DNA of 64,000 nt from Leucoraja ocellata (Eukaryota). Shown here piece after piece: positions 590-59,684 of the stretch (position 1 is its first letter; each line of letters starts with the position of its first letter). The DNA lies in the NCBI GenBank assembly GCA_036785375.1, contig JAWMAR010000104.1, forward strand, positions 3,782,001 to 3,846,000, given 5' to 3'. The position numbers and the translations under genes are program-made. The notes under the pieces were generated by a model. It searched no databases. It saw only the letters and a list, made by a program, of their open reading frames with translations, and had not been told where the DNA came from.

Positions 590-3037
590 CTCGTTATTCA
601 CACGGCAGTTGGAGCTTTCAGAACTTATCATCCCTGGGTTCTCTTTGCCAATCTGTTTTTTCTGGATATAATCCATTGCTGTAGATAGCCCGAACCTTTC
701 AGTGGTCCTTAAATCTCTCTTCGCAGACTGCAACGTTGAACAAGACTCATAGCGGTAACTCTGAGAAAGCGGATCACCTCCGAACACTTCAACGTAGTTC
801 GGTGGTATTTGAAGGCTTCTGCTGGCATTTTGAATCCCATTCAGAGAACTCCTTGACTCCAAACAGCAGCAGACGTTCAGAGAACCATATTGACTTTCTA
901 CGCCATTTCTGTTTTTATAAACCTTGACAGCCAGAATAATTAAAATCACGAGGAAAATGGTAGATGTCGTTCCTAAAGCTATGACCAAGGAAAGGTTAAA
1001 ATCTGGAGCGAAGACGTGATCTTTAGAAAGACTTGTGGCGCTGGATATCGTGTCGACGCCTTTCACAGATAGAACAATAGTCACCGTGGCTGAAAGTGAC
1101 GGGATTCCATTATCTTTTACAACAATCACCAGCCTTTGTTTAGATGCATCCTTTGTCTCAATGGCACGGATGGTCCAAATTTCCCCAGTGTCCTCTGAAA
1201 TAGTAAAAAGATTACGGTGGGTGGCCTGAAAAACATGATAAGTCAGACGGGCATTCTGACCGGAGTCGGCGTCAGTAGCGGATACCTTGGCAACTAGGTA
1301 TCCTGGTTCTGCAAACCTGGATATTGTCTCCATTACATTTGACTCATGTTCGGGCAAAGGACTCACGATCACTGGAGCGTTATCGTTCTGATCGAGGATA
1401 ACAACGTCCACTGTAACGTTACTGGAGAGAGGTGGGACTCCAGAATCTCGCACCAATACATGGATCTGGAAATTTTTCAATTGTTCGTAGTCAAATGATT
1501 TCTGCGCAAATATCACACCATTTTGTGAGTCAATTGAGACATACGAGGCCACGACTGCATTTAGGATAGTAAAGTTTAATCGGGCGTTTTGTCCCGTGTC
1601 TGGATCGTCGGCCGTGAGGGAGAATATGGAATCCCCAATAACGTTGTTTTCCATGACATTTGCCGTGTATGCAGCCTGCGTAAACCTCGGCGCGTTATCA
1701 TTTACATCTGAAACATCTACATGGATACTTTTCTTGGTTGTGAGCGGTGGGTCCCCTGCATCCGTGCATGTCACAGTGATGTCATACCTGGGGGTAGTTT
1801 CTCGATCCAGCCCGTGTTGTACAAGCAGTTTCCAATTATCCCTCACTGATGGTTCCAGCTTAAAGGCGACTTCATTTGGAATTTGACATTTTACTTGTCC
1901 GTTCTGTCCAGAATCCTTATCTTGTGCGCTGAGAAGGGCGACAATGGTTCCGATTGGAGCATTTTCTGCCACTGCACTGGACATGGATGTCAATGACACT
2001 TCAGGGGCATTGTCATTAACATCGATAACATCCACCAACACATCACAGTGTTGAGACATTGAATGATGACCATTGTCGATTGCTTTTATGTTTATGACAA
2101 ACGTTTTGCTTTGTTCAAAGTCCAAATGCCCTTTCAGTCTGATTTCACCAGATTGAGAATTCACAGCAACTAACTCACGAACGTCAGCAGAGTTATGGCT
2201 GCTGAAGGAATATGTTATCTTACCATTAGGGCCATCGTCCAAATCAGTGGCGTTTAACTTAATAATCAGACTACCTGTGGGAGCCGATTCCACCATACTG
2301 ACACTGTAAACCGCTTGTGAGAAAACAGGGGGATTGTCGTTCGCGTCCTTCACTCTGACAGTTACCTGAACCTTACCCGATCTTAGAGGGACCCCGCCGT
2401 CTTCAGCAAGCATCGTTAAGTCATGGGTCGATGTCGTTTCTCGATCCAGGGCCCGCTGCAGCACTAACACAGGTAAATCTCCTATCCTAGCACGTTCTTG
2501 TACATCAAGTATGAAATAATCATTGGGAAGGAGCTGGTAAGTCTGCAAGGAGTTCGTCCCAATGTCCGGATCGTGAGCTGGCTCGAGGGGGAATCGCGCT
2601 CCCGGTGACATATTCTCTGAGATTTCAAGGCGGATCTGGCTTTTGGGGAAACTGGGAGCGTTGTCATTTACATCGAGTATCTCCACTTCCACCTGGTGAA
2701 GACTGAGGGGATTTTCAAGCACGACGTTCAGGGGTAAAATGCAATCGATGCTCGGCCCGCAAAGTTGCTCCCTGTCGATTCTCTCATTCACAAATAAAAC
2801 CCCTTTTTCTAAATTTAGGTCAACATATCGCCTCCTCAGGTCTGGCGCCACCCGCAAACTGCGAGCCGAGAGCTGCTTTAAATCTAACCCCAAATCAATG
2901 GCGATATTCCCAACAAAGGCACCCAGTTGCAATTCCTCTGGAACGGAATATCGAATCTGCCCAGAAACAAGGTCCCAGGGGCAGAAAAAGCAGCACAATA
3001 GTCGGTATTTGAGCAGCCAATATATATTATCTCTCAT
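590..3037 (-). CDS. Clustered protocadherin variable exon V1 (type A), 816 codons to splice donor; read-through ORF ends at 566
   Basis: Signal peptide, QIRYSVPEE start of EC1, EC1 C-x5-C (CGPSIDC), six cadherin repeats with DRE/DxNDNxP/DxD motifs, TM (LVIALGTTSTIFLVILIILAV), cytoplasmic segment, donor GAG|GTGAGT at 589-584. Confidence 0.96.
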
Positions 3038-3214
3038 TTCCAGTAGAAATCATTCCAATGGTTTCAACCCGAGACAAAACCTTTCGTCAGCGATTTGATT
3101 TAAATGAGACAAATACGACGCAGGCAATATTTGTACCTCCTTGGTGAATTGTTCCAATGTTTTCATTTAATCGTGTTGATGTTTTACCCAGTTCGAAATG
3201 AATCGAGCAGAAAC

Positions 3215-3382
3215 CGTCCGGAGCTGCTGCCTATCCAGTGTCCACGGCGTCTGATCGGACGCGATGGCGGCTGGGTATTGTAAGGGGCTGTGCAGATCAC
3301 CAGTTCCCTCCGACCTCCTGATTGGTGAATAATGTAGCAGTCATATCCGACCAATTACAATTCAGCTCATTTCTTAAAGCAG
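3215..3382 (-). promoter_or_regulatory. Variable-exon promoter module of V1
   Basis: CpG-containing block repeated at the same distance upstream of all nine exons: GATGGCGGC 3263-3271, ATTGG 3321-3325, CCAAT 3351-3355, TTCTTAAAGC 3371-3380. Confidence 0.8.
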
Positions 3383-4328: not shown

Positions 4329-6794
4329 ACAGACAATAGGCAATAGACAATAGACAATAGGTGCAGGAGTAGGCCATTTGGCCCCTTCAGCCAGCACCGC
4401 CATTCAATGTGATCTTGGCTGATCATCCCCAATCAGTACCCCGTTCCTGCATTCTTCCCATATCCCCTGACTCCGCTATTTTTAAGAGCCCTATCTAGCT
4501 CTCTATTGAAAGCGTCCAGAGAACCTGCCTCCACCGCCCTATGAGGCAGGGAATTTCACAGACTCGCCACTCTCTGTGAGAAAAAGGGTTTCATCGTCTC
4601 CGTTCTAAATGGCTTACTCCTTATTCTTAAACTGTGGCCTCTGGTTCTGGACTCCCCCAACATCGGGAACATGTTTCCTGTCTCTAGTGTGTCCAAGGCC
4701 TTAACAATCTTATATGTTTCAATGAGATACCCTCTCATCCTTCCAAACTCCAGAATGTACAAGGCCAGCTGCTCCATTCTCTCAGCATATGACAGTCCCG
4801 CCATCCCGGGAATTAACCTTGTAAACCTACGCTGCACTCCCTCAATAGCAAGAATGTCCTTCCTCAAATTAGGGGATCAAAACTTCACACAATACTCCAG
4901 GAGTGGTCTCACTAGGACTCTGTACAACTACAGAAGGACCTCTTTGCTCCTATATTCGATTCCTCTTGTTATAAAGGCCAACATGCCATTCGCTTTCTTC
5001 ATTGCCTGTTGTACCTGCATGTTTACTTTCATAGACTGATGTACAAGGACCCCCAGATCCCATTGTTCTTCCCCTTTTCCCAACTTGATGCCATTAAGAT
5101 AGTAATATGCCTTCCTGTATTTCCTACCAAAGTAGATAACCTCACATTTATCCGCATTAAACTTAATCTGCCATGCATCTGCCCACTCCCCAACCTGTCC
5201 AAGTCACCCTGCATTCTCATAGCATCTTCCTCAAAGTTTACACTGCTACCCTGCTTTGTGTCATCTGCAAATTTGCTAATGTTACTTTGAATCCCTTCAT
5301 CCAAATCATTGATGCATTATTGTAAATAGCTGCGGTCCCAGCAGCGAGCCTTGCGGTACCCCACTAGTCACCACCTGCCACTCTGAAAGGGTCCCGTTAA
5401 TCCCTACTCTTTATTTCCTGTCTGCCAACCACTTCTCTATCCATGTCAGCACTCTACCCCCAATACCATGTGCCCCAATTTTGCCCACTCATCTATTATG
5501 TGGGACCTTATCAAATGCTTTCTGAAAGTCCAGGTACACTACATTCACTGGCTCTCCCTTGTCCATTTTCCCCAGTTACATCTTCAAAAAATTCCAGAAG
5601 ATTAGTCAAGCATGATTTCCCCTTCGTAAATCCATGCTGACTCGGACCGATCCTGTTACTGCTATCCAAATGTGCGGCTATCTCATCTTTTATAATTGAA
5701 TCCAGCATCTTCCCAACCACCGATGTCAGGCTAACTGGTCTATACTTCCCCGTTTTCCCTCCCCCACCTTTCATAAAAAGTGGGATAACATTAGCTACCC
5801 TCCAATCCACAGGAACTGATCCTGAGTCTATAGAACATTGGATAATTATCACCAACGCATCAACGATTTATCGAGCCACTTCCTTAAGTACCCTTGGAGG
5901 CAGACCATCAGGCCCTGGGGATTTATCAGCCTTCAGTCCCATCAGTCTATCCAACACCATTTCCTGCCTAATGTGGATTTCCTTCAGTTCCTCCATCAAC
6001 CCAGATCTTCTGGTCACTACAATATCAGGAAGATTGTTTGTGTCCTCCTTAGTGAACACAGATCCAAAGTATCTGTTCAACTCATCTGCCATTTCGTTGA
6101 CCCCCATAATAAATTCACCCCTTTCGGTCTTCAAGGTTCCAACTTCGGTCTTAACTAATTTGTTCCTCTTCACATACTTAAAGAAGCTTTTACTATCCTG
6201 CTTTATATTCTTGGCTAGCTTACCTTCGTACCTTATCTTTTCTCCCCGTATTGTCTTTTTGGTTATCTTCTGATGTTCTTTAAACATTACCGAATCCTCT
6301 TGCTTCCCGCTCATCTTTGCTACGTTGTACTTCTTCGCTTTAATTTGTATACTGCCCCTGACGTCCCTTGTCAGCCATGGTCGTCCCTTTCTCCCCTTGG
6401 AATCTTTCTTCCTCCTAGGAATGAACTGACCCTGCACCTTCTGTATTATTCCTAGAAATACCTGCAATTTTTGTTCCACTATCATCCCTGCTAGTGTATC
6501 TTTCCAGTCAACTATGGCGAGCTCCTCCCTCATGGCCCCATAATCCTCTTTATTCAACTGCAACACTGACACCTCCGATCTACTCTTCTCCCTCTACAAT
6601 TGTAGATTAATCCTGACCATGTTATGGTCACTGCCTCCTAATGGCTCATTAACCTCGAGGTCCTTTATCAAATCCGGTGCATTACATAACACTAAATCCA
6701 GAATTGTCTTCTCCCTAGTAATCCAGAATTGCCTTCTCCCTGGTGTCTAGAATTGCCTTCTCCCTGGTAATCCAGAATTGCGATCTCCCTTAGT
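4329..6794 (-). mobile_element. CR1-clade LINE, 5'-truncated, degenerate ORF2 (end of APE domain, RT, C-terminus)
   Basis: ORF fragments with KADKSPGPDG, YRPVSLTSVVGK, QHGF..GKSCLTNLLEFFE, SKFADDTK; (GACAATA)n tail at 4331; imperfect TSD GCTTTA/GCTTCA; empty site at ~12905. Confidence 0.93.
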
Positions 6795-7150
6795 GCTTCA
6801 TTGCACTAATATATAGGAACTCGGTTTGTGTCCCGCCTCACTTGCTAAACACATGCAGAAGACACCTGTTAAATATAAATGCAATGTTACATAGGGGAAA
6901 GTTTGCTGATTGCCATAGGACATTGATTAGTATCAATATTCCTTGGATAAGGAAGCAGTCTGTACCCATATGGAATAAGTCATAGGGTCATAGATTCATG
7001 CACAACAGAAACCCATAACGACCAAAGTACCCCATCAAAGCCAGATCCCAGACAATAGTGATGCGTTGAAATGGCACTTCATTCATATTTAAAATTGGTA
7101 GGTATCAGCTATCCCTAGCAACAGATACGACAACCTCTACTCTAATTATG

Positions 7151-7227
7151 TCAAGGTTTCAAGGTTTCACGGTCAGTTTATTGTCACATGCACCAATTAA
7201 GGTAAAGCGAAATTCGAATTACCATGC
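7151..7227 (-). repeat. Short fragment of an unclassified interspersed repeat (tail similar to 42003-42075)
   Basis: TTCAAGGT repeats followed by TTTATTGTCACATGCACC; absent from paralogous spacer at ~14645. Confidence 0.5.
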
Positions 7228-7633
7228 TACCCCTAATTAATTCACATCCCAATTACATGGGTTCACGATATATTGGAAACTGCTGAATTGGCTACATATT
7301 TTTGGAGCATGACAGGTCATCAGTCGTTGTGTTTTGAGGCGACGATATTGTTCCCTGCTCTGCCGCCATTTGGCAATTGCAAAGTAATATTTTGATTCGG
7401 ATATTTTACAAATACGTGGATATGTAACAGCAACATTTGGAATGGTCAACATTAGTCATAATAAAGCTTTCAACTTGAACAACATAAAAATTCCTTCAAA
7501 ATTAATTCGGACCACCACAGAATACTTCCTCAGAATTTCAACCAAAACTGCCCAAGCGAGAAATGTAAGTGCACGAGAAAAAACAACGAGAAGGCACTAT
7601 CCCTAATTATTCTACGTCTCCTTATTTAGCACA

Positions 7634-8480
7634 AATAACCATATAACCATATAACAATTACAGCACGGTAACAGGCCATCTCGGCCCTACAAGTCCGTGC
7701 CGAACAACTTTTTTCCCTTAGTCCCACCTGCCTGCACTCATACCATAACCCTCCATTTCCTTCTCATCCATATGCCTATCCAATTTATTTTTAAATGATA
7801 CCAACGAACCTGCCTCCATCACTTCCACTGGAAGCTCATTCCACACCGCTACCACTCTCTGAGTAAAGAAGTTCCCCCTCATGTTACCCCTAAACTTCTG
7901 TCCCTTAATTCTGAAGTCATGTCCTCTTGTTTGAATCGTCCCTATTCTCAAAGGGAAAAGCTTGTCCACATCAACTCTGTCTATCCCTCTCATCATTTTA
8001 AAGACCTCTATCAAGTCCCCCCTTAACCTTCTGCGCTCCAGAGAATAAAGACCTAACTTATTCAACCTTTCTCTGTAACTTAGTTGTTGAAACCCAGGCA
8101 ACATTCTTGTAAATCTCCACTGTACGCTCTCTATTTTGTTGACATCCTTCCTATAATTGGGCGACCAAAATTGTACACCATACTCCAGATTTGGTCTCAC
8201 CAATGCCTTGTACAATTTTAACATTACATCCCAGCTTCTATACTCAATGCTCTGATTTATAAAGGCTAGCATACCAAAAGCTTTCTTTACCACCCTATCT
8301 ATATGAGATTCCACCTTCAAGGAACTATGCACGGTTATTCCCAGATCCCTCTGTTCAACTGTATTCTTCAATTCCCTACCATTTACCATGTACGTCCTAT
8401 TTTGATTTGTCCTGCCAAGGTGTAAGCACCTCACATTTATCAGCATTAAACTCCATCTGCCATCTTTCAGCCCATTCTTC
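7634..8480 (-). mobile_element. CR1-clade LINE 3' portion (second family, ATAACCAT tail)
   Basis: 242-aa ORF 7718-8446 with LYKALVRPNLEY, YSLERRRLRGDLIEVFK, FFTQRVV; closely similar to 28420-29250. Confidence 0.93.
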
Positions 8481-9033: not shown

Positions 9034-11463
9034 CTCATTATTCACACGGCAGTTGGCGTTTTCAGAACTTATCAGTCCTGTTTTTTTCTGGATATAATCA
9101 TTTGCTGTAGATAGCCCACATGTTTGCGTGGTCCTTAAATCTCTCTTCGCAGACTGCAACGTTGAACAAGACTCGTAACGGTAACTCTGAGAAAGCGGAT
9201 CACCTCCGAACACCTCAACGTAGTTCGGTGGTATCTGAAGACTTCTGCTGGCGTTTTGAATCCCATTCAGAGAACTACTTGACTCCAAACAGCAGCAGAC
9301 GTTCAGATAACCATATTGACGTCCAACGCCATTTCTGTTTTTATAAATCTTGACAGTCAGGATAATTAAAATCACGAGGAAAATGATAGATGTCGTTCCT
9401 AAGGCTATGACCAAAGAAAGGTTCAAATCTGGAGAGAAAACGTGATCTTTAGCAAGACTGGTGGCACTGGATATCGTGTCGCCTCCTTTCACAGATAGTA
9501 CAATGGTCACAGTGGCTGAAAGCGATGGGATTCCATTATCTTTTACAACAATCACCAGCCTTTGTTTAGATGCATCCTTTGTCTCAATACCACGGATGGT
9601 CCAAATTTCCCCAGTATCCTCTGAGATAGTAAATAGATTACGATGGGTGGCCTGAAAAACATGATATGTCAGACGGGCATTCTGACCTGAGTCGGCGTCA
9701 ATAGCGGATACCTTGGCAACTAGGTATCCTGGTTCTGCAAACCTCGATATTGTCTCCATTACAGTTGACCCATGTTCGGGCAAAGGATTCACGATCACTG
9801 GAGCGTTATCGTTCTGATCGAGGATAACAACGTCCACTGTAATGTTACTGGAGAGAGGTGGGACTCCAGAATCCCGCACCAATACATGGATCTGGAAGTT
9901 TTTCAATTGTTCGTAGTCAAATGATTTCTGAGCAAATATGACACCATTCTGTGCGTTAATGGAGACATACGAGGCCACGACTGAATTCAGGATAGTAAAG
10001 TTTAATCGTGCGTTTTGTCCCGTGTCTGGATCATGGGCTGTGAGGGAGAATATGGAATCCCCAATAACGTTGTTTTCCATGACATTTGCCGTGTATGCAG
10101 CCTGCGTAAACCTCGGCGCGTTATCATTTAAATCTGAAATGTCTACACGGATATTTTTCGTAGATGTGAGCGGTGGGTCCCCAGCATCCGTGCATGTCAC
10201 AGTGATGTCATACCTGGGGGTAGTTTCTCGATCCAGTCCGTATTGTACAAGCAGTTTCCAATTATTCTTCATGGAGGATTCCATCTTAAAGGGCAATTTA
10301 TTCGGAATTTGACATTGTACGTGCCCGTTCTGTCCAGAATCTTTATCTTCTGCGCTGAGTAGGGCGACAATGGTTCCGATTGGAACATTTTCTGCCACTG
10401 CACTAGACATGGATGTCAATAACACTTCAGGGGCATTGTCATTCACATCGACAACATCCACCAACACATCACAGTGTTGAGAAATCGAAGGTGTACCTTT
10501 ATCGGTTGCTTGTATATTGATCACAAATGTTTTACTTTCTTCAAAGTCCAGATGTTCATTGAGTTTGATTTCACCAGTTTGGGAATTCACGCCAACTAAA
10601 TGACGAACATCAGCAGAGTTACGGCTGCTGAGAGAATATGTTATCTCCCCATTAGGGCCATCGTCTAAATCAGTGGCGTTTAACGTAATAATCAGTCTTC
10701 CTACGAGAGCCGATTCCACCATACTGACACTATAAACCGCTTGTGAGAAAACAGGAGCATTGTCGTTCGCGTCTTTCACTCTGACAGTTACCTGAACCGT
10801 ATCCGATCTTAGAGGGACTCCGCCGTCTTCAGCAAGCACCGTTAAGTCATGGGTCGATTTCGTTTCTCTATCCAGGGCCCGCTGCAGCACTAGCACCGGT
10901 AAATTTCCTAGCCTAGCGCGTTCTTGTACATCAAGAATGAAATATTCATTAGGAAGGAGCTGGTAAGTCTGCAAGGAGTTCGTCCCAATGTCCGGATCGT
11001 GAGCGGGCTCGAGGGTGAATCGCGCTCCCGGTGCCATATTCTCTGAGATTTCAAGGCGGATCTGGCTTTTGGGGAAACTGGGAGCGTTGTCATTTACATC
11101 GAGTATCTCCACTTCCACCTGGTGAAGGCTGAGGGGATTTTCAAGCACGACGTTCAAGGGTAAAATGCAATCGATGCTCGGGCCGCAAAGTTGCTCCCTG
11201 TCGATTCTCTCATTGACAAATAAAATTCCTTTTGCCAAATTTACATCAACATATCGCTTCATCTGGCTGGGTGCCAGCCGCAAACTGCGAGCCGGGAGCT
11301 GCTTTAAATCTATCCCCAAATCAATTGCGATATTCCCAACAAAGGCACCCAGTTGCAATTCCTCTGGTACTGAATATCGAATCTGCCCAGAAGCAAGGTC
11401 CCAGGGGCAGAAAAAGCAGCACAATAGTCGGTATTTGAGCAGCCAACATATATTATCTCTCAT
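9034..11463 (-). CDS. Clustered protocadherin variable exon V2 (type A), 810 codons; read-through ORF ends at 8995
   Basis: Full SP-EC1-6-TM-VCD architecture; donor GAG|GTGAGT at 9033-9028; 6-aa deletion in cytoplasmic tail relative to V1. Confidence 0.96.
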
Positions 11464-11637
11464 TTCCAGGAGAATTCATTCCAATGTTTTCAACCCGAGA
11501 CAACGACTTTCGACAGCGATTTGATTTAAATGACAACTACGAGGCAGAAAATGTCTCTACCTCCTTTGCGAATTGTTCCAATATTTTCATTTATCCGTTC
11601 TGATGTTGTATTCTGTTCGAAATGTATCGAACAGGAG

Positions 11638-13192: not shown

Positions 13193-13261
<69 letters not shown>

Positions 13262-15629: not shown

Positions 15630-18074
15630 CTCGTTATTCACGCGGAAGTTGTTTTCAGAACTTATCATTTCTGGGTTCTCTTTACCAATAGTTCTTTTCG
15701 GCAGATAATGCATTGCTGGAGATAGCCCACACGTTTGAGTGGTCCTGAAATCTCTCTTCACGGACTGCAATGTTGAACAAGACTCATAACGGTAACTTTG
15801 AGAAAGTGGATCACCTCCGAAGACCTCAACGTAGTTCGGTGGTATCTGAAAGCTTTTGCTGGCATTTTGAATTCCATTCAAAGAACTCCTTGATTCCAAA
15901 CAACAGCAGACGTTCAGAGAACCATATTGGCGTCCTACGCCATTTCTGTTTTTATGAACCTTAGCAGCAAGGATAACTAAAACCACGAGGAAAACGATAG
16001 ATGTCGTCCCTAAGGCTATGACCAAAGAAAGGTTCAAATCTGGAGTGAAGACGAGATCTTTAGATAAACTGGTGGCACTGGATATCGTATCTCGTCCTTT
16101 CACAGACAGTACAATGGTCACTGTGGCTGAAAGCGAAGGGAATCCATTATCGTTTACAACAATCACCAGCCTTTGTTTAGATGCATCTTTTGTCTCAATT
16201 GCACGGATGGTCCAAATTTCCCCAGTGTCCTCTGAAATAGTAAAAAGATTACGGTGGGTGGCCTGAAAAATATGATAAGTCAGACGGGCATTCTGACCCG
16301 AGTCGACGTCAATAGCGGATACCTTGGCAACTAGGTATCCTGGTTCTGCAAACCTGGATATTGTCTCCATTACAGTTGACCCATGTTCGGGCAAAGGACT
16401 CACGATCACTGGAGAGTTATCGTTCTGATCGAGGATAACAACGTCCACTGTGACGTTACTGGAGAGAGGTGGGACTCCAGAATCTCGCACCACTACATGG
16501 ATCTGGAAGTTTTTCAATTGTTCGTAGTCAAACGATTTCTGAGCATTAATGACACCATTCCGTACGTCAATAGAGACATACGAGGCATCGATTGAATTCA
16601 GGATAGTAAAGTTTAGTCGGGCGTTTTGTTCCGTGTCTGGATCATAGGCAGTGAGGACGAATATGGAATCCCCAATAACGTTATTCTCCATGACATTTGT
16701 CGTGTATGCAGCCTGCGTAAACCTCGGTGCGTTATCATTTACATCTGAAACATCTACACGGATATTTTTCTTGGTTGTGAGCGGTGGGTCCCCTGCATCC
16801 GTACATGTCACAGTGATGTCATACCTGGGGGTAGTTTCGCGATCCAGTCTGTGTTGTACAAGCAGTTTCCAATTATTCCTCACGGATGATTCCAGCTTAA
16901 ATGGGAGCTCATTCGGAATTTGACATTGTACATGTCCGTTCTGTCCAGAATCCTTATCTTCTGCGCTGAGTAGGGCGACAATGGTTCCGATTGGAACATT
17001 TTCTGCCACTGCACTGGACATGGTTGTCAATGACACTTCAGGGGCATTGTCATTCACATCGATAATATTCACCAACACATCGCAGTGTTGAGGTATTGCG
17101 TCAGGTCCATTGTCGACTGCTTGGATATTAATCACAAATGTTTTGCTTTGTTCAAAGTCCAAATATCCTTTCAATTTGATTTCACCGGTTAGGGAATTCA
17201 CAGTAACTAATTTTCGGTCGTCAGCAGAATTATGGGTGCTAAGAGAATATGTTATCTCTCCATTAGGGCCATCGTCCAAATCAGTGGCGTTTAACTTAAT
17301 AATCAGACTACCTGTGGGAGACGACTCCAGCAGACTGACACTATAAACCGATTGTGTGAAAACAGGAGCATTATCGTTCGCGTCCTTCACTCGGATAGTT
17401 ACCTGAACCATACCCGATCTTACAGGGACTCCGCCGTCTTCAGCAAGCACCGTTACCTCATGGGTCGATGTCGTTTCTCTATCCAGGGCCCTCTGCAGCA
17501 CTAACACCGGTAAATTTCCTCTCCTAACGCGTTCTTGTACATCAAGAATGAAATACTCATTGGGGAGGAGCTGGTAAGTCTGCACGGAGTTCGTCCCAAT
17601 GTCCGGATCGTGAGCGGCCTCGAGGGGAAATCGCGCTCCCGGTGCCATATTCTCTGAGATTTCAAGGCGGATCTGGCTTTTGGGGAAACTGGGAGCGTTG
17701 TCATTTACATCGAGTATCTCCACTTCCACCTGGTGAAGACTGAGGGGATTTTCAAGCACGACGTTCAAGGGTAAAATGCATTCGGTGCTCGACCCGCAAA
17801 GTTGCTCCCTGTCCATTTTCTCATTCACAAATAAAATCCCTTTTGCCAAATTTACGCCAACATATCGCTTCCTCGGGTTGGGCGCCAACCGCAAACTGCG
17901 AGCCGAGAGCTGATTTAAATCTATGCCCAAATCAATGGCGATATTCCCAACAAAGGCGCCCAGTTGTAATTCCTCGGGAACAGAATAACGAATCTGTCCA
18001 GAAACAAGGTCCCAGGGACAGAAAAAGCAGCAAAATAGTCGGTATTTGAGCAACCAAAATATTTTCTCTCTCAT
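15630..18074 (-). CDS. Clustered protocadherin variable exon V3 (type A), 815 codons; read-through ORF ends at 15621
   Basis: Full architecture; donor GAG|GTGAGT at 15629-15624. Confidence 0.96.
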
Positions 18075-18250
18075 TTCCAGGAGAAATCATTCCAATGGTT
18101 TCAACCCGAGACAATGCCTTTCGTCAGCGATTTGATTTACATGAGATAATTACGACGCAGGACATATCTCTACCTCCTTCCCGAATTGTTCCAATGTTGT
18201 AATTTAAACGTCCTGATGTTGTATCCAGTTCGAAATAAATCGAGCAGAAA

Positions 18251-22149: not shown

Positions 22150-24597
22150 CTCGTTATTCACACGGCAGTTAGACTTTTCAGAACATATCATTCCTGGGTT
22201 CTCTTTCCCAATTGGTTTGTTCTGGATATATTCCATTGCTGTAGATAGCCCACGGGTTTGCGGCGTCCTGAAGTCTCTCTTCACGGACTGCAATGTTGAA
22301 CAAGACTCGTAACGGTAACTCTGCGAAAGCGGATCACCCCCGAATACCTCAACGTAGTTCGGTGGTATTTGAAGACTTCTGCTGGCCTTTTGAATCCCAT
22401 TCAGAGAGCTCCTTGATTCCAAACAACAGCAGACGGTCAGAGAATTATATTGGTGTCCTACATCGTTTCTGTGTTTATGGACCTTAACAGCAAGGATAAT
22501 TAAAATCACGAGGAAAATTATAGATGTCGTCCCTAAGGCTATGACCAAGGAAAGGTTCAAATCTGGAGTGAACACGTGATCTTTAGATAGACTGGTGGCA
22601 CTGGCTATCGTGTCGCTTCCTTTCACAGACAGTACAATGGTCACTGTGGCTGAAAGTGACGGGATTCCATTATCGTTTACAACAATCACCAGCCTTTGTT
22701 TAGATGCATCTTTAGTCTCAATGCCACGGATGGTCCAAATTTCCCCTGTGTCCTCTGAAATAGTAAAAAGATTACGGTGGGTGGCCTGAAATACGTGGTA
22801 AGTCAGACGGGCATTCTGACCGGAGTCGGCGTCAGCAGCGGATACCTTGGCAACTAGGTATCCTGGTTCTGCAAACCTGGATATTGTCTCCATTACAGTT
22901 GACCCATATTCAGGCAAAGGATTCACGATCACTGGAGCGTTATCGTTCTGATCGAGGATAACAACGCCCACTGTAACGTTACTGGAGAGAGGTGGGACTC
23001 CAGAATCCCGCACCAATACATGGATTTGGAAATGTTTCAATTGTTCGTAGTCAAACGATTTATGCGCACAAATGACACCATTCTGTGAGTTAATGGAGAC
23101 ATACGAAGCCACGACTGAATTCAGGATAGTAAAGTTTAATCGGGCGTTTTGTCCCGTGTCTGGATCATGGGCTGTGAGGGAGAAGATGGAATCCCCAATA
23201 ACGTTATTCTCCATGACATTTCCCGTGTATGCAGCCTGCGTAAACCTCGGCGCGTTATCATTTACATCTGAAACATCTACACGGATATTTTTCTTCGATG
23301 TGCGCGGTGGGTCCCCAGCATCCGTGCATGTCACAGTGATGTCATACCTGGAGGTAGTTTCTCGATCCAGCCCGTGTTGTACAAGTAGTTTCCAATTATT
23401 CTTCATGGAGGATTCCATCTTAAAGGGCAATTTATTCGGAATTTGACATGTTACTTGTCCGTTCTGTCCAGAATCCTTATCTTCTGCGCTGAGTAGGGCG
23501 ACAATGGTTCCGATTGGAACATTTTCTGCCACTGCACTGGACATGGAAGTCAATAACACTTCAGGGGCATTGTCATTCACATCGATAATATCCACCAACA
23601 CATCACAGTGTTGAGGTATTGCGTAAGGACCGTTGTCGACTGCTTGGATATTAAGCACAAATGTTCTGCTTTGTTCAAAATCCAATTGGCCTTTGAGTTT
23701 GATTTCACCAGTTTGCGAATTCACAGCAACTAACTCACGAACGTCAGCAGAATTATGGCTACTCAGAGAATATGTTATCTCTCCATTAGGGCCATCGTCC
23801 AAATCAGTGGCGTTTAACTTAATAATCAGACTACCTGTGGGAGCCGACTCCACCAGACTGACACTATACACCGATTGTGTGAAAACAGGAGCATTATCGT
23901 TCGCGTCCTTCACTCGGATAGTTACCTGAACCTTACCCGATCTTACAGGGAGCCCGCCGTCTTCAGCAAGCACTGTTACCTCATGGGTCGATGTCGTTTC
24001 TCTATCCAGGGCCCTTTGCAGCACTAACACCGGTACATTTCCTATTCTATCTCGTTCTTGTACATCAAGAATAAAATACTCATTTGGAAGGAGCTGGTAA
24101 GTCTGCAAGGAGTTCGTCCCAATGTCCGGATCGTGAGCGGCCTCGAGGTTGAATCGCGCTCCCGGTGCCATATTCTCTGAGATTTCAAGGCGGACCTGGG
24201 TTTTGGGGAAACTGGGAGCGTTGTCATTTACATCGAGTATCTCCACTTCCACCTGGTGAAGACTGAGGGGATTTTCAAGCACGACGTTCAAGGGTAAAAT
24301 GCAATCGGTGCTCTGCCCGCAAAGCAGCTCTCTGTCGATTCTTTCATTCACAAATAAAATTCCTTTTTCCAAATTTACGTCAACATATCGCTTCCTCGGG
24401 CTGGGCGCCACTCGTGTTCTGCGAGCCGAGAGCTCCTTTAAATCTAATCCCAAATCAATTGCGATATTCCCAACAAAGGCGCCCAGTTGCAATTCTTCGG
24501 GAACCGAATATCGAATCTGCCCAAAAACAAGGTCCCAGGGGCAGAACAAGCAGAACCAGAGTCGGTATTTGAGCAACCAATATATATTATCTCTCAT
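22150..24597 (-). CDS. Clustered protocadherin variable exon V4 (type A, chimeric), 816 codons; read-through ORF ends at 22090
   Basis: Full architecture; donor GAG|GTGAGT at 22149-22144. Confidence 0.96.
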
Positions 24598-38347: not shown

Positions 38348-40801
38348 CTCCGGAACACTGTGTTTTACAGAATTCGTCATTGCAATTTTTTCTCTTCCCA
38401 TAGATTCGCTCAGCGGAATGTTCTTGTCTGTTGAGGGTCTGCACATTTGGGGGACGATGAACTCTCTCTTGGTTGACTGTAACGTAGAACACGACTCGTA
38501 GCGAAAACTTTGGGAAAGGGGATCGCCCCCAAATACCTCAACATAATTTGGTGGTATCTGAAGACTTCTACTGGCTTTCTGGATCCCATTAAGAGAATTC
38601 CTTGATTCAAGGCAGCAACAGATACCCAGGGGACATTCGTGGTATACCATACCATTCCTGTTCTTGTGAACGTTAACAGCGAGGATGACTAAAATAATGA
38701 GGAAAATGACAGATATTATTCCCAAAGCGATAACCAAGGAAAAGCTCAGTTCAGGGATGAAACTTGGATCTAAAGACGGACTGTTGACACTGGAGAACGT
38801 TTCAATGTCAGTCCCAATCACAGATAATACTATAGTCACAGTGGCAGAGAGTGAGGGAATTCCATTATCTTTTACCACAATCACCAACCTTTGCTGAGAC
38901 GCATCCTTGTTCAAAATTGGACGTATAGTCCAAACCTCACCCGTGTCTGCGGAAATGGTGAAAAGATTGTGATGAGTAGCCTGAAAAATCTGATAAGAGA
39001 GATGAGCATTCTGACCAGAATCTGCATCCGTGGCTGAAACTTTGACAACCAAGTATCCTGGTTCTGCAAATCTGGATATTGTTTCTATCGCTGTTGAACC
39101 ATATTCTGGTGAAGGATGTAAAATCACTGGAGCATTGTCATTCTGATCAAGGATAACTACGTTCACTGAAGCATTACTCGTCAGCGCACCAGAGTCCTGC
39201 ACTTGAACCTGTATCTGAAAGCCTTTCAATTGTTCATAGTCAAACGTTCCCCGAGCATATATGACACCACTCTCGGAATTAATTGAGACATAAGAGGCTA
39301 TTGAAGAATTCTGAATCTCTGACTCCAGGATAGAGAAGATCAGTCGGGCATTTTCTTCTACATCTGGATCGAAGGCCGTCACAGAAAATATAGAAGCCCC
39401 AATAACATTGTTTTCCTGCACATTTGCTGTGTACACCGGTCGAGAAAACCTTGGCAAATTGTCATTTACATCTGAAACCTCTACCCGGATGGTTTTCTGC
39501 GAGGTAAGAGACGGGTGGCCCGCATCCTTGCATATTATAGTGATATCGTACTTGGGGGCAGTCTCCCGGTCCAATGGATGTTGTATAATAATGCTGTAAT
39601 AGTTCTTGATAGATGAATCCAGCTTAAAGGGGAGTTCATTTGAAATTTGGCATTGCACCTCGCCGTTCTGTCCCGAATCGTGGTCTTCTGCACTGAACAG
39701 TGCCACTACAGTCCCAAGTGGAGCGTCTTCCGACACTGTCTTTGATAAAGACCGTAACGTAATCTCCGGCGCGTTATCGTTCACATCGACAATTTCGACC
39801 AATACGTGACAATACACGGGGATAGCGCCGGAACCCTTATCCATCGCCTGCATGCTAACCTCAAACACATTGCTTTTCTCATAATCCAAAATCCCTTTGA
39901 GTCTGATTTCACCAGTTTTGGAATTCACATCCACAAGTCTGCGGGCAACAGCGGAAACATGGCTACCAAAAGAATACACTATCTCTCCATTGAGGCCATC
40001 GTCCGGGTCAGTGGCGTTCAACGTAAGGATTAGGGTCCCTGGCGGTGCAGACTCCAACAGGCTGACTTTGTAATGCGACTGAGAGAAAGCAGGCGCGTTG
40101 TCATTAATATCCTTCACTGTGATTATAATCTGAACGGTTGCAGATCTCGAAGGCAAACCGCCGTCCTTAGCTGTTAACAATAAACGATGTACTGACGTTA
40201 TTTCTCGGTCCAAAGGCTTCTCTAGCAACAGTACCGGCCACTTGTCCTTCCCGCTGCCCATTTGTACATCGAGAGTAAAATATTCATTTGGTTGGAGCTG
40301 GTAGGTTTGCAAAGAGTTCGTGCCAATATCGGGATCGTGTGCGGGTTCAAGAGGAAATCGCATCCCCGGTGCTGTAAATTCTGGAATTTCAAAGCGAAAC
40401 TGGCTTTTAGGGAAACTGGGGGCATTGTCATTTACATCGAGAATCTCCACTTCCACTTGGTACAGGCTCAAGGGGTTTTCAATCACAACATCCAAGGGTA
40501 AACGGCAGTCGGATCTCGACCCACAAAGCAGTTCTCTGTCGATTATTTCCTTCACAAATAAAATACCACTTGTCAAATTTACGTCGAAATATTGCTTCCT
40601 TGGACTGGGCGATACCCCGAAACTGCGAGCCGCCAGCTGCTTTACATCTAAACCTAAATCGACAGCGATTTTCCCAACAAAGGCTCCATGTTGCAGTTCT
40701 TCAGGAACAGAATAACGAATTTGCCCGTACGCAAAATTCCACGGGGCAAACACACAGAACATCAATTGGCATTTTATCAACCAATATAATTTATATCTCA
40801 T
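38348..40801 (-). CDS. Clustered protocadherin variable exon V6 (type B), 818 codons; read-through ORF ends at 38333
   Basis: Full architecture; donor GAG|GTGAGA at 38347-38342; closest to V8. Confidence 0.96.
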
Positions 40802-40992
40802 TTCCAGTAGAAGTCATTCCAATGCTTTTAAAACCAGGCAGTATTATCTATTGTCCTTTCCAACGATAGGTCGGTGTTAAATAGAACCAAAACAACACAG
40901 AATACATCCGTACCTCTTGCGAATCTCTCCAATTATTTCATTCAATCGCTCGCAATCTCCTCCGCATTTGCGAGAGGATTCTTGCAACAATC

Positions 40993-44533: not shown

Positions 44534-46993
44534 CTCATAATTTGCACTGCAGTTTAATGCTTCAGACTGTATCATTCCCGGATTCTCTTTCCCAGTAGCA
44601 TGCTTCTGTACATAAGGCATTGCATTCGATGGTTGGTATGCTTGAGGTGTGATGTTTCTTTTCACGGACTGCAACGTTGAACACGATTCGTAACGGAAAC
44701 TCTGAGAAAGGGGATCACCTCCGAATACTTCGACATAGTTTGGTGGTATCTGCAGGCTCCTACTCGCCTTTTGAATTCCATTCAGGGAACTGCTTGATTC
44801 CATACAGCAGCAGACGTTCAGCGAACCGTGCTGGCGCCCCACACCATTTCTGTTTTTATGAACCTTAATGGCAAGGATAATTAAAATCACGAGGAAAATT
44901 ATAGATGTTGTCCCTAAGGCTATGACCAAGTAAAGGTTTAGATCAGGAGGGGAGTCACCATATTCAGACGAACTGGTGGCACTTGACAATGTCTCACTCC
45001 CTTTCACAGATAGTACTACAGTGAGAGTAGCAGAGAGAGATGGCGTTCCATTGTCCGTTACCACAATCACAATCGTTTGCTTGGAGGCATCCCTGATGCC
45101 AATACCACGGATAGTCCAAATTTCTCCCGTGTCTGGTGAAATAGTAAACAGGTTTTGATGAGTAGCCTGAAAAATCTGATAATACAAATGTGCGTTTTCA
45201 CCTGCGTCCGCGTCAGTAGCTGATACCTTGACAACTAGGTATCCAGGTTCTGCAAACCTGGATATTGTCTCCATTGCTGTTGACCCATATTCGGGCAAAG
45301 GACTCACTATGACTGGAGCGTTGTCGTTCTGATCAAGGATAACAAAATCTACAGTAGTGTTAGTGGTGAGTGATGGGACTCCAGAATCCTGCACCCGAAA
45401 GTATATTTTGAATGTTTTTAATTTCTCGTAGTCGAAGGATTTCTGAGCAAATATGACACCGCTCTGTGAATTGATGGAGACGTACGATGCAATGGAGAAG
45501 CCCTGAACTTGAGAGGGCAGGGTAGAATAGTTGAGCCGGGCATTCTGTCCTAAATCTGGATCAAAAGCAGCCAATGTGAATATGGAAGCCCCGATGACGT
45601 TGTTCTCCATGACATGAGCGGTGTGAACCGTCTGAGCAAACATCGGTGCGTTATCATTTACATCGGAAATCTCTACACGAATCGTTTCCGTAGATATTAG
45701 ACTGGGGTGCCCAAGGTCCGTGCAAGTTATGGTAATGTCATACCTGGAGGTAGTTTCTCGATCCAGCTTATGGTCTAGAAGCAATCTACTAAAATGTTCC
45801 ATAGACGAATCCAGTTTAAACGTAAATTTACTTGATATTTGACATTGTACTTGCCCATTTTCTCCAGAATCTTTGTCTTCTACGCTGAGTAGGGCCACTA
45901 TTGTCCCAATCGTGGCATCTTCTGGTATGGTACTTAACGTGGATGTTATCGACATATCAGGAGCGTTGTCATTCACATCGATAACATCCACCAACACGTC
46001 ACAGTGCTGGGGCAGTGCGTGAAGGCCATTGTCGATTGCTTGTACATTAATCTCAAAAAATGTGCTTTGTTCATAGTCCAATTGTACTTTCAGTCTGAGA
46101 TCGCCTGTTTTAGAATCGATGCTGAATATTTCAGGAACATTTTCAGAATTGTAGCGACTGATCGAGTAGGTTATTTCTCCATTGGCACCGTCGTCCAAGT
46201 CAGTGGCGTTTAATGTAATAACCAGGGATCCTAAGGGAGCCGATTCCAACAAAGCCACCTTGTAAACCGACTGCGTGAAAACAGGAGCATTGTCGTTTGC
46301 ATCCTGCACTGTGATCGTGACCCGGACCTTACCCGATCTCACAGGGACTCCCCCGTCTTCAGCAAACAGCGTTAACTCGTGGGTTGATACTGTTTCTCTA
46401 TCCAAAGGCCTCTGCAGCACCAACACCGGCATCTTTACTTTCCCACTGTGTGTCTGCACGTCAATAGTGAAATATTCATTGTGGATGAGCTGGTACGTCT
46501 GCAAGGAGTTCGTCCCAATATCGGGGTCGTGCGCGGCTTCCAGGGGGAATCGCGCCCCTGGTGCCATACCCTCGGAGATTTCAAGTCGGATCAGGCTTTT
46601 GGGGAAACTGGGAGAGTTGTCATTTACATCGAGTATCTCCACTTCCACCTGGTGAAGACTGAGGGGATTTTCAAGCACGACGTTCAAGGGTAAAATGCAA
46701 TCGGTGCTCGGCCCACAAAGTTGCTCCCTGTCTATTCTTTCATCCACAAATAAAATCCCTTTTGCCAAATTTACGTCAACATACCGCTTCCTCGGGCTGG
46801 GCGCCACCCGCAAACTGCGAGCCGAGAGCTGCTTTAAATCTAAGCCCAAATCAATTGCGATATTCCCAACAAAGGCACCCAGCTGCAATTCCTCGGGAAC
46901 AGAATAACGAATCTGCCCAGAAACACGATTCCAGAGCGAGAACAAACAGCAAAACACTTTGAATTTCAGCAGGCAGTATATGTTAAATCTCAT
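44534..46993 (-). CDS. Clustered protocadherin variable exon V7 (A-like EC1, long EC5 loop), 820 codons; read-through ORF ends at 44519
   Basis: Full architecture; donor GAG|GTGAGG at 44533-44528. Confidence 0.96.
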
Positions 46994-47173
46994 TTCCAGG
47001 ATAAGTCATTCCAATGGTTTGAACCCGAGACAATGCCTTTCAACAGCGATTTGTTTAAAATGGAAAAATCACAGGCAGAATATATCGGTACCTTCTTGCG
47101 AATTGTTCCAATACTTTCACTTATGTTTCAATTTTTCATATTCTCTCCAATTCGAAAGGAATCGTGCAGAAAT

Positions 47174-51112: not shown

Positions 51113-53554
51113 CTCAGGGACATTGCACTTTTTAGAATTCGCCAATCCACCAGTTTCATTCGAGATATAATTGTTTCCTCCTGTGGGAGTGCGCCCGTTA
51201 GAGCCGATAAAATATCTCTTCGTAGATTGCAGTGTCGAACATGACTCATAGCGGAATCTTTGGGAAAGTGGATCTCCCCCAAATACCTCAACATAGTTTG
51301 GTGGTATCTGAACACTTCTACTGGCCTTCTGAATTCCATTCAGAGAGTTTCGTGATTCAAAGCAACAACAGATACCAAGTGAACGGTGCTGGTAAACAAT
51401 ACCAGTCCTGTTTTTGAGTAATTTAATGGCAAGGATGACTAAAATTATAAGGAAAATAATCGATATTATTCCCAAAGCTATAACCAAGGGAAACCTCAAT
51501 TCAGGACTGAACCTTGGATCTGAAGGCGAACTGTTGACAATGGGGAACGTTTCACTATCAGTCCCAACTACAGATAATACTATAGTCACAGTAGCAGAGA
51601 GTGATGGAATCCCATTATCTTTTACCAAAACCACCAACCTTTGACGAGAGGCATCTTTGCTCACAATTGGACGGATTGTCCAAATGTCACCCGTGTCTGC
51701 AGAAATGGTGAAAAGATTATGAGTAGCTTGAGAAATGTGATAAGAGAGACGAGCATTCTGACCAGCATCGGCATCAGTGGCTGAGACCTTTACAACCAAG
51801 TATCCAGGTTCTGCAAATCTGGATATTGTTTCTTTTGCTGTTGAGCCATATTCTGGTGAAGGTTGTAAAATCACTGGAGCATTGTCATTCTGATCAAGGA
51901 TAACAACATTCACTGAAGCATTACTCGTCAGCGCTGGCGCACCAGAATCCTGCACTTTAATCTGTATCTGAAAGCCTTTGAATTGCTCGTAGTCAAAAGT
52001 TCTCCGAGCATATATGACACCGCTCTCCGAGTGAATTGAGACATAAAAGGCTATTGAGAAATTTTGAACTTCTGTCTCCAGGATAGAGAAGTTCAGTCGG
52101 GCATTTTCTCCTACATCTGGATCGAAGGCCGTCACGGAATATATAGAAGCCCCAATAACATTGTTTTCCTGAACATTTGCCGTGTACACCGGCCGAGAAA
52201 ACCTTGGAAAGTTGTCATTTACATCTGAAACCTCTACGCGGAAAGTTTTCTGCGAGGTAAGAGAAGGGTAGCCCGCATCCGTGCATATTATAGTGATATC
52301 GTATTTGGGGACAGTCTCCCGGTCCAGTGGACGTTGTACCAGAATTCTGTAATAGTTCTTGATAGATGAATCCAGCTTAAAGGGGAGTTGATTTGAAACT
52401 TGACATTGTACTTCTCCATTATGTCCGGAATCTCGGTCTTCTGCGCTGAACAGTGCCACTACCGTCCCAAGTGGAGCGCTTTCCGAGACAGTCCCTGACA
52501 AAGACCGCAGTGTCACATCCGGCGCGTTATCATTCACATCGACAATTTCCACCAATACATCACAGTATTCTGGTATTGCGCCAGAACCCTTATCCATCGC
52601 CTGTATGTTAATCTCAAAGGTATTGCTCTCTTCATAGTCTAAGTTCCCTTTGAGCCTGATTTCACCAGTTTTAGGGTTCACTTCAAAAAGCTTACGGGCA
52701 GCATCAGAAAGATGGCTGCTGAAAGAATAAACAATCTCTCCGTTGGGCCCTTCGTCCAGGTCAGTGGCGTTCAGTGTGATGAGCAGGAAGCCTCTCGGCG
52801 CAGATTCCAACAGGCTGACTTTATAAACCGACTGAGTAAAAACAGGCACGTTATCGTTTCCATCTTTCACGACGATTATAATCTGAACCGTTCCCGATCT
52901 CGGAGGCAAACCGCCATCCTCGGCTATCAGAGTTAAATAGTGGGTTGCTATTGTTTCCCTATCCAAAGGCTTCTCTAACAACAACACTGGGAGCTTTCTG
53001 GTTTCACTGCGCATTTGTACGTCGAGAGTGAAATATTCATTCGGTTGTAGCTGATAACTTTGCACAGAATTGGTGCTAATGTCAGGATCATGTGCGGGTT
53101 CGAGAGGAAATCGCATTCCCGGTGTTGCAAATTCTATGATTTCAAGGCGAAACTGTTTGTTTGGAAAACCAGGAGCATTGTCGTTTACATCGAGAATCTC
53201 CACCTCCACCGGGTACAGGCTCAAAGGATTTTCAAGCACAACATCCAAGGATAAGCGGCAGTCGAGATTAGACCCACAAAGCAGTTCCCTGTCGATGATT
53301 TCCTTTACAAATAAAATCCCACTTGTCAAATTTAAGTCGAAATACTGCTTCCTTGGACTGGGCGCTACCCGCAACCCGCGAATCGACAGCTGCTTTACAT
53401 CTAAACCCAAATCGACGGCGATTTTCCCAACAAAGGCTCCCTGTTGCAGTTCTTCAGGAATAGAATAGCGAATTTGCCCAAGTACAAGATCGCAGTTGGA
53501 GAGCACACAGTACAATAATAGACATTTTATCAACCAATATATTTTGTATCTCAT
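51113..53554 (-). CDS. Clustered protocadherin variable exon V8 (type B), 814 codons; read-through ORF ends at 51104
   Basis: Full architecture; donor GAG|GTAAGT at 51112-51107. Confidence 0.96.
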
Positions 53555-53744
53555 TGCAAGAAGACGTCATCCCAATGGTTTCATGCCCAGATTGTCTTCT
53601 TCATTGTCCTGTTAACGGCGAATCGGCTTTAAATACAACGAATGCTATTTTCAGCAAAACACTCGTACCTTATGCTCGCATCTCTCGAGTTATTTCATTC
53701 ATACGCTCTCATTTTGCCTTCAGTTACGCGAGGATTCCTGCAAA

Positions 53745-55767: not shown

Positions 55768-55967
55768 NNNNNNNNNNNNNNNNNNNNNNNNNNNNNNNNN
55801 NNNNNNNNNNNNNNNNNNNNNNNNNNNNNNNNNNNNNNNNNNNNNNNNNNNNNNNNNNNNNNNNNNNNNNNNNNNNNNNNNNNNNNNNNNNNNNNNNNNN
55901 NNNNNNNNNNNNNNNNNNNNNNNNNNNNNNNNNNNNNNNNNNNNNNNNNNNNNNNNNNNNNNNNNNN
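55768..55967. other. Assembly gap (200 N, probably a placeholder size)
   Basis: Run of N. Confidence 0.99.
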
Positions 55968-57070: not shown

Positions 57071-59517
57071 CTCATTACTTGTATAGAAGTTGGAAGCTTG
57101 AGACTTTAACATTCCTGGAATCTCCTTACCATTAGGGTTCTTCCGGGTACACTGCATTGCTGCAGGAAGCCCACATGTTTGAAGTGTTGTGACGTCTCTC
57201 TTCGTCGACTGCAGTGTAGAACACGACTCGTAACGGAAGCTCTGAGAAAGTGGATCACCTCCAAATACCTCGACATAGTTTGGTGGTATCTGAAGGCTTC
57301 TGCTGGCCTTTTGGATTCCATTCAGTGAAGTTCTTGTTTTGAAGCAACAACAGACGGTGTGTGAACTTTGCTGGAGTCCCAGTCCATTTCTGCGTTTATG
57401 AACCTTAACAGCAAGTAAAATTAAAATTACGAGGAAAATGATAGATGTTGTCCCCAAGGCTATGACCAAAAAATGGTTCAGATCAGGGATGAACTTTGGA
57501 TCTGTGGACAAGCTGGTGGCACTAAAGACCTTTTGATTCTCTTTCACAGACAATGCTAGCGTCACCGACGCAGAAAGTGGTGGCACTCCATTATCTTTTA
57601 CAACAATCACAACTCTTTGCTGAGACGCATCTTTGCTCTCAATGTCACGCACGGTCCATATTTCCCCCGTGTCTGCTGAAATAGTAAAGAGGTTGCGATG
57701 GGTAGCTTGTAAAATGTGGTAAGTCAGGAAGGCATTCTGGCCGGAGTCGGCGTCTGTTGCTGATATCTTCACAACTAGGTTCCCAGGTTTAGCAAGCCTG
57801 GATATTGTCTCCGTTACTGTTGACCCATATTTAGACATAGGGTTCACGATCACGGGAGCATTATCGTTCTGATCGAGGATAAGAACATCCACACTACAGT
57901 TACTGCTCTGCGGTGGGACTCCAGAATCCCGCACCAGCACATGGATTTGGAAACTTTTCAACTTCTCGTAGTCAAACGATCTCTGAGCAAATATGACGCC
58001 ATTTTGTGAGTTAATGAAGACATATGAGGCTACGGATGAATTCACGATTGAAAACTTCAGTCGAGCATTTTGTCCCTCATCTGGATCGTAGGCTGTCAGG
58101 GAGAATATAGAACTTCCAATGACATTATTCTCATTGACATTCGCCGTGTATACAGGCTGCGTAAACCTCGGTGCGTTATCATTTACATCTGAAACATCTA
58201 CATGAATCGTTTTCTTGGATGCGAGGGGAGGGTTTCCTGCATCCGTGCAAGTCACAGTAATGTCATACCTGGAGGTAGTTTCCCGATCCAGTGTATCCTG
58301 TATTAGCAGTCTGCAAAAACTTTTCATACTTGTGTCCAGCTTAAATGGCAGTTTACTTGCAATTTGACAATGCACTTGCCCATTTCGACCGGAGTCTTTG
58401 TCTTCTACGTTGAGCAGTGCAACAACTGTTCCGATTGATGTATCTTCTGGTACCGTACTGGAGACAGATGTTAATGTTATATCAGGAGCATTGTCATTCA
58501 CATCGATAACATCCACCAATACATCACAATGCTGAGGCATTGCGTAATGACCATTGTCGACTGCTTGTACATTAATCTCAAAAAACATGTTTTCTTCGTA
58601 GTCCAAATGACTTTTCAGTCTTATTTCACCAGTTTTCGCATCTACGCCAAATAGTTCATGAAATTTTGCTGAATTTTGGCCACTAAGTGAATATGTAATC
58701 TCACCATTAGAACCCTCGTCCAAATCAGTGGCGTTTAATCTAATAATCAAAGTCCCCACGGCAGCTGTTTCCAACATTCTGACGCTATAAACCGATTGTG
58801 AGAAAACAGGATGGTTGTCGTTCATATCTTGCACCGTGATTGTTACTCGAACCGTGCCCGATCTCACAGGGACTCCGCCATCTTCTGCAAAGAGCATTAA
58901 CTCGTGGGCCGGTATTGTTTCTCTATCCAAGGCCCTCTGCAGCACTAACACTGGTATTTTTCCTTCCTACTGCGTGTCTGTACATCAAGAATGAAATATT
59001 CACTGGGAAGGATCTGGTAAGCCTGCAAGGAATTCGTCCCAATGTCCGGATCATATGCGGAATCGAGGGGGAATCGCGCTCCCGGTGCCATATTCTCCGA
59101 TATTTCAAGGCGGATCTGGCTTTTGGGGAAACTGGGAGCGTTGTCATTTACATCGAGTATCTCCACTTCCATCTGGTGAAGACTGAGGGGATTTTCAAGC
59201 ACGACGTTCAAGGGTAAAATGCATTCGGTGCTCGACCCGCAAAGTTGCTCCCTGTCGATTCTTTCATTCACAAATAAAATCCCATTCTGCAAATTTACGT
59301 CAACAAATTGCTTCCTCGGGCTGGGCGCCATCCGTGTTCTGCGAGTCGAGAGCTGCTTTAAATCTAAGCACAAATCAATTGAGATATTCCCGACAAAGGC
59401 ACCCAGCTGCAATTCCTCTGGAACAGAATAACGAATCTGCCCAGAAACAAGATTCCAGTGGGAGAATAAACAGCAAAACAATTGGCATTTCTGCAGCCAA
59501 TATATGTGAAATCTCAT
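57071..59517 (-). pseudogene. Clustered protocadherin variable exon V9 with one 1-nt frameshift in EC2 (pseudogene, null allele or sequencing error)
   Basis: ORFs 58945-59517 and 57050-58951 join into a complete Pcdh; ATG to donor is 2447 nt versus 2448 in V1/V4/V5; lesion maps to about the T5 run 58957-58961; donor GAG|GTGAGT at 57070-57065. Confidence 0.8.
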
Positions 59518-59684
59518 TTCCAGGAGAATTCATTCGAACGGTATGAATCCGAGACAATATTTTTAAACGGTATCTTGAATCATTACAAATACAACGTTTA
59601 CAATCTGTACCTTCCTGCGCGATGTTGGAATATTTTCATTTAAATATCATCACGTTGACGTACAATTCGAAATGAACTATACGG

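Follow-up and report, generated by a model that had tools for sequence, protein, structure and literature searches.

A candidate decoy start codon at a fixed distance before the protocadherin start in nu-type variable exons of the skate Leucoraja ocellata

Nine protocadherin variable exons in tandem

The window analysed here is a stretch of 64,000 nucleotides (nt) of the Leucoraja ocellata genome (assembly GCA_036785375.1, contig JAWMAR010000104.1, positions 3,782,001 to 3,846,000). It contains nine large minus-strand exons in tandem, termed V1 to V9, of 816-835 codons each, which code for cadherin-repeat proteins. Each of them is preceded at close range by a second, out-of-frame ATG, a candidate decoy start that is the subject of this study. 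Offsets are counted from the A of the protocadherin ATG throughout.

The coding part of V1 (590-3037, minus strand as all nine) runs from a signal peptide over cadherin repeats and a membrane span to a GAG|GTGAGT donor. The coding parts of the other exons are located at 9034-11463 (V2), 15630-18074 (V3), 22150-24597 (V4), 31244-33691 (V5), 38348-40801 (V6, type B), 44534-46993 (V7), 51113-53554 (V8, type B) and 57071-59517 (V9). All nine are closed by a donor of the form GAG|GT(G/A)AG. V9 carries a one-base frameshift in an A/G-rich run near codon 185 (about 58965, minus strand), and its open reading frame stops at 190 codons. The Leucoraja erinacea counterpart (P0134) is also broken in this run, though through another indel, while the Amblyraja counterpart (P0030) is intact. 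The run is either a slippage hot spot or a recurrent assembly error.

Single large exons with signal peptide, cadherin repeats, membrane span and donor, arranged as a tandem array, are what variable exons of clustered protocadherins look like. Residues 1-135 of V1 are 98% identical to a L. erinacea protocadherin and 68% identical to protocadherin nu8 of Callorhinchus milii, which relates V1 to the nu subcluster of that species. Close homologues of V1 are annotated as isoforms of ~1034 aa; the constant exons lie outside the window. The window is the nu-type variable region of the skate protocadherin cluster. A tenth exon start was not found in it. Because the signal peptides of homologues mostly measure 25-27 residues (53 of 58 matched chondrichthyan sequences), the ATG used here as the main ATG is the right start.

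An upstream ATG at exactly -16

The upstream ATG lies exactly 16 nt before the protocadherin ATG in 9/9 exons, with its A at 3053, 11479, 18090, 24613, 33707, 40817, 47009, 53570 and 59533 (minus strand, V1 to V9). A first-pass annotation, made from the sequence of the window, had placed it there and had listed the lengths of the upstream open reading frames (uORFs) that it opens; positions and lengths both hold. The uORF has 8 codons in V1 (3027-3053), V2 (11453-11479), V4 (24587-24613), V5 (33681-33707), V6 (40791-40817) and V7 (46983-47009), ending in these six with a TAA at +9..+11. It extends to 38 codons in V8 (53454-53570, TGA at +99) and to 52 codons in V3 (17932-18090, TGA at +141) and V9 (59375-59533). 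Every stop is located downstream of the true ATG (9/9; at +9, +99 or +141), in agreement with the overlap described initially. The true ATG has G at -3 and A at +4 in all nine exons. The upstream ATG shares this context in 8/9; the earlier claim of a G at its -3 thus stands for V1 to V8 and fails for V9, which has C.

The notion of a conserved 8-codon frame is not supported. The stop is absent in 3/9 exons, and the peptide appears unconstrained, with a ratio of nonsynonymous to synonymous differences (pN/pS) of 2.17 over codons 2-5 (five lineages). No Pfam match was obtained for the peptide, and a comparison with 1.84 billion representative sequences returned only a chance match to an unrelated repeat protein. 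As peptide sequence and length (8-52 codons) vary, a uORF acting by a conserved peptide was rejected. The same applies to the TAA at +9 as a selected stop, which is missing in three exons and needs merely a silent T in codon 3 before Lys or Asn. Among 94 distinct signal peptides, 59 allow a TAA at +9, 13 at +12 and 22 at neither position.

The leaders contain 29 ATGs compared to 46.7 expected from shuffles, a comparison in which the exons are not independent; the ATG at -16 is nonetheless kept. A second, less conserved ATG lies in the motif AATGAAA (3164-3166 in V1, minus strand) at about -127..-144 in V1, V2, V5, V6, V8 and V9, and its frame varies. The upstream ATG itself overlaps a TGA in the protocadherin frame as ATGA in 9/9 exons (-15..-13; V1: 3050-3052, minus strand). 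This TGA closes in-frame upstream reading frames that begin at -129 in V1 and V5 (38 codons) and at -30 in V8 (5 codons).

The upstream ATG is part of a conserved block

The upstream ATG, the in-frame TGA and both start contexts are embedded in a gap-free block at -36..-1, which in V1 corresponds to 3038-3073 (minus strand) and has the same offsets in all nine exons. Within the block 20/36 columns are invariant and none contains a gap, compared to 10/64 invariant columns in the flank at -100..-37 and 24/80 gap columns there. Of 148 four-fold silent sites, 27 do not vary among the nine exons. Even with the ATG left aside, 17/33 block columns are invariant, which differs from the silent sites with p=1.9e-4. 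At the silent-site rate, the chance that three specified neutral sites all lack variation is about 0.006. What the window by itself establishes is the conservation of the block; it does not establish that of the start codon.

Since V1-V5 are near copies of each other (91-100% identity over the block), the nine exons amount to about five independent lineages. This likeness raises the question whether any selection is needed at all, or whether the site persists because the exons duplicated recently, exchanged sequence by gene conversion and belong to a slowly evolving group, the cartilaginous fishes. V6 is nearer to V1 (83%) than to V8 (72%) in the block, as a short conversion tract would give, and gene conversion is reported for these clusters, the elephant shark included, in passages of PMC4978886. 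However, type A and type B exons are 0.76 identical in the block and only 0.52 at silent sites, with 42-58% at -99..-37. Moreover the same block recurs across sharks, rays and chimaera and on distant paralog branches, as described below. We hence regard preservation in the absence of selection as improbable.

The block in sharks, rays and a chimaera

At the DNA level the block was read in the nine skate exons. For other species we used gene models which translate the leader in the protocadherin frame. A total of 19 distinct joints have ≥6 residues before a nu-type start, 17 from a census plus two more. Fourteen models align to the skate block, covering nine species of sharks, rays and chimaera (Callorhinchus included). 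The remaining five joints (P0125 and four of P0191) were left unscored, as similarity ends within four residues of the Met in the way a model splice joint would give; one of them could conceal a real exception. Three of the 14 models built the search profile, and three chimaera cases came in by cluster membership, independent of the profile. This method misses copies in which the frame is interrupted by a stop or shifted. A search with the S. canicula extension alone gave no further extended model, and metagenome pattern scans for related loci gave 184 and 82 matches, none of which was confirmed.

At -15..-13, 12 of the 14 models have a Cys codon and two a Trp codon, meaning that T at -15 and G at -14 are unchanged in 14/14. 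The preceding codon specifies Glu in eight models, Lys in three, Gly in two and Gln in one. Position -16 is a purine in 12/12 informative models and A is permitted in 14/14, whereby the models cannot distinguish A from G. Changes occur at -18 in four models, at -17 in two, at -20 in four and at -12 in two, while -21, -11, -6 and -3 are likewise unchanged. Eleven of the 14 models could be placed on a protein tree, where they scatter across many branches; one C. milii model carries the block three times. Judged from these translated leaders, the site is older than the skate exons alone could show, with the TG kept in every scorable shark, ray and chimaera model.

Another explanation is that the block codes, or once coded, for an N-terminal extension in the protocadherin frame. 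The ATG would then derive from adjacent Glu and Cys codons, and the TGA of the skate would be read through or decoded as selenocysteine. The pN/pS of the block is 0.50 in this frame and 1.41 and 1.81 in the other two (column-shuffle p=0.016, ~0.05 when corrected for three frames). The in-frame TGA of 9/9 skate exons aligns with the Cys (12) or Trp (2) of the 14 models, and models having TGA cannot appear in such a set. Selenocysteine would call for a SECIS element in the 3' UTR, beyond the window; within the window Rfam detected nothing. On the other hand, the ratio is derived from 12 codons and only five lineages, the changes L to S, L to Q, E to G and C to W are single-base and not conservative, and most of 141 signal peptides have no extension. 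The extended models begin at -9, -30, -48, -54, -90 and -93. Because there is no shared in-frame start, we give a coding extension or a recoded stop little probability. The in-frame ATG of V8 at -30 (53584, minus strand) is common to stingray relatives (P0073, P0191); the TGA is a Cys codon there and an extension of 10 residues is annotated.

A possible binding element as the conserved unit

Conservation of the block may also reflect a binding element, in DNA or RNA, or an extended start context of the true ATG. The ATG would then be part of the motif, and a loss in translation would be a tolerated side effect. The conservation of the whole block, with its 17 invariant columns outside the ATG, agrees with this, as do positions -21, -6 and -3, which are unchanged in all 23 sequences as far as readable. 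GGAATG is found in 7/9 skate exons and is possible in 8/14 models. Its majority form TGGAATG(C/T) resembles what we take to be a TEAD/MCAT site. In contrast to the TG, which is never broken, GGAATG is broken in V8, V9 and 6/14 models. The first-pass annotation had pointed to the break in V8 and V9 with the start kept, and the gene models extend this observation. An intact GGAATG being absent in 2/9 exons and 6/14 models, a TEAD/MCAT core was rejected as the conserved unit. An RNA fold over the block is weak (-2.7 kcal/mol) with 0/12 pairs showing two-sided change, and Rfam gave no match inside the window. A binding element thus appears rather unlikely to us, though less so than the two explanations considered above.

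Probable transcript leader and promoter

Raw RNA reads were taken from run X24, which stems from another sample. About 5% of the run was read, giving 64 reads at 80% likeness on the V1 leader, for V1-like exons only. Eight of these cover the upstream ATG. Depth is 4.6 at 3236-3257, 0.23 at 3258-3279 and 0 at 3280-3323, with one read farther upstream. Contigs of X9, which may be a DNA run, also drop off across 3214-3257. The upstream ATG hence likely sits in the mRNA leader, as the uORF proposal had presupposed, with depth tailing off over -214..-225. We infer a transcription start near -215 because the drop in depth matches an invariant CAGAC (-216..-212, 9/9) about 70 nt downstream of an invariant ACCAAT. 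The likely start region TCAGAC is located at -217..-212 (3249-3254, minus strand), and its role as an initiator is putative.

ACCAAT (9/9; -289, 3318-3326, minus strand) is a promoter element that resembles a CCAAT box. Nearer to the likely start are invariant GCCCC and GCCAT runs at -253..-226 (3263-3290, minus strand), placed like the conserved promoter element of other vertebrate clusters. In mouse and frog clusters such an element lies about 200 bp upstream, according to passages of PMC4978886. The promoter stretch 3263-3380 (minus strand) and its equivalents in the other exons share invariant GCTTTAAG (-343), ACCAAT (-289), GATC, GCCCC (-251) and GCCAT (-231). None of the invariant motifs within this stretch is a CGCT box of the mammalian kind.

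An invariant, splice-donor-like AGGTA (AG|GTA) was observed in the leader at -93 to -114 in 9/9 exons (V1: 3134-3138, minus strand). It is located in the most divergent part of the leader and could mark a minor leader intron or a U1 binding site. Among the few X24 reads no joint at this AG|GTA is listed, and three reads cross the downstream stretch.

Other features of the window

Retroelement remains, presumably CR1-like, lie between V1 and V2 (5868-8446, minus strand) and between V4 and V5 (28191-29165, plus strand). The latter has a reverse-transcriptase Pfam match. An assembly gap of 200 bases (55768-55967) separates V8 and V9.

Discussion

From the sequences compared here we lean slightly towards the reading that selection has maintained the ATG at -16 in the leaders of all nu-type variable exons as a decoy start that lowers protocadherin output. 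The skate ATG has the sequence features of an overlapping uORF: it is out of frame, its stop lies beyond the main AUG, and it likely sits in the leader, the last point deriving from the eight reads of one run on V1-like exons, the strand of which is unsettled.

Several observations weigh against this reading. Three chosen block columns are all invariant with a probability of 0.16, and some invariant triple is near certain. Compared to its own block the ATG stands out with p=0.10-0.15 only, conditional on 11 gene models. The TG excess in the 14 models has p=0.16 (6/14 readable sites unchanged) or p=0.016 (equal-rate model). The excess conservation of the ATG within the block is therefore only suggestive. 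A versus G at -16 is unreadable from proteins, such that GTG is possible outside skates. Each leader contains 1-6 ATGs besides the one at -16, and the frameshifted V9 retains the upstream ATG too. The low pN/pS of the block in the protocadherin frame is unpredicted by a decoy start. Finally, the eight reads occur in both orientations with no pile-up of ends, and a further run (X21) gave 0 reads. So far, the upstream ATG cannot be separated from its conserved surroundings.

If the ATG at -16 acts as a decoy, ribosomes scanning from about -215 would meet it before the true ATG, in a context (G at -3, A at +4) that resembles that of the true start. Ribosomes initiating there would be in another frame when they reach the true ATG and would terminate at +9, +99 or +141. 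Protocadherin would then be made by ribosomes that skip the decoy, plus a share regained through competition between the two starts at 16 nt. Since this spacing is at the edge of the ~17-nt range of AUG competition, a partial cut would be expected, its size being set by context and spacing rather than by the peptide. Moreover, as the decoy frame terminates early, over 2 kb ahead of the splice that joins the constant exons, it might also lead to nonsense-mediated decay. The outcome would be a fixed attenuator per mRNA, the same for all isoforms, and not a stress switch.

Upstream AUGs of this kind are known. Passages of a study on yeast reporters (PMC9743702) describe out-of-frame upstream AUGs at -30..-3 that lower output, less so nearer to the main AUG, and trigger decay; at spacings above about 17 nt no competition between AUGs could be detected. 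According to passages of PMC4890304, uORFs are under-represented in the last ~100 nt of vertebrate leaders, and repression is stronger the nearer a uORF lies to the start. The skate ATG resembles vertebrate overlapping out-of-frame uORFs in having an upstream AUG, a stop past the main start and no conserved peptide, an arrangement that is expected, from the parts of both sources considered here, to lower main-frame initiation (PMC4890304; PMC9743702). Unlike typical overlapping uORFs, it is found at one exact distance in every paralog examined, and its TG is kept across sharks, rays and chimaera.

A large neuronal family with stochastic promoter choice and uORFs in its leaders is also represented by the mouse olfactory receptors. 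Passages of the respective survey (PMC4627058) give uORFs in 67% of 805 mouse olfactory receptor mRNAs and in 38% of controls. This survey, in the part considered, concerns the density of non-overlapping uORFs, whereas the protocadherin case consists of one overlapping AUG at a fixed position (PMC4627058).

The protocadherin leaders, with an overlapping uORF and further AUGs upstream, also call a regulated switch to mind. In the delayed re-initiation of ATF4 and GCN4, an inhibitory uORF overlaps the main start and further AUGs lie upstream. In contrast to ATF4 and GCN4, the upstream AUGs of the protocadherins differ between exons in position, reading frame and uORF length, and with a spacing of 16 nt a delay in re-initiation would hardly suffice to carry ribosomes past the decoy. 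A switch of this type was rejected, as the leaders have no conserved short upstream uORF, which we take to be its defining feature.

Accounts of how clustered protocadherins are controlled deal almost entirely with promoter choice. Passages of PMC7811963 attribute this choice to a conserved CTCF element, and the passages on control in PMC7811963 and PMC4978886 describe promoter elements only. Upstream-AUG or leader-level control of clustered protocadherins was not found described in literature listings and abstract starts, which leave most of the subscription literature out of reach. The upstream ATG would probably work like an overlapping uORF, a known kind of element, the presence of which at a protocadherin locus we found unreported in these listings.

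In a wider and more tentative version, which we consider possible but rather doubtful, the decoy may go back to the last common ancestor of sharks and chimaeras and have persisted in every nu-type variable exon of cartilaginous fishes. By capping the protein made per isoform throughout the family, it would form a dosage layer over stochastic promoter choice, tunable exon by exon via the two start contexts.

With their AUG pairs 16 nt apart, close to the spacing at which AUG competition was measured to end, the variable exons form a natural series and invite the same look at the clusters of bony vertebrates. If the ATG proves to be a by-product, a conserved and unreported leader block remains. 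If instead the ATG at -16 is indeed a decoy start, the amount of protein per isoform would, beyond promoter choice, also be limited at translation in a family that serves neuronal self-recognition.

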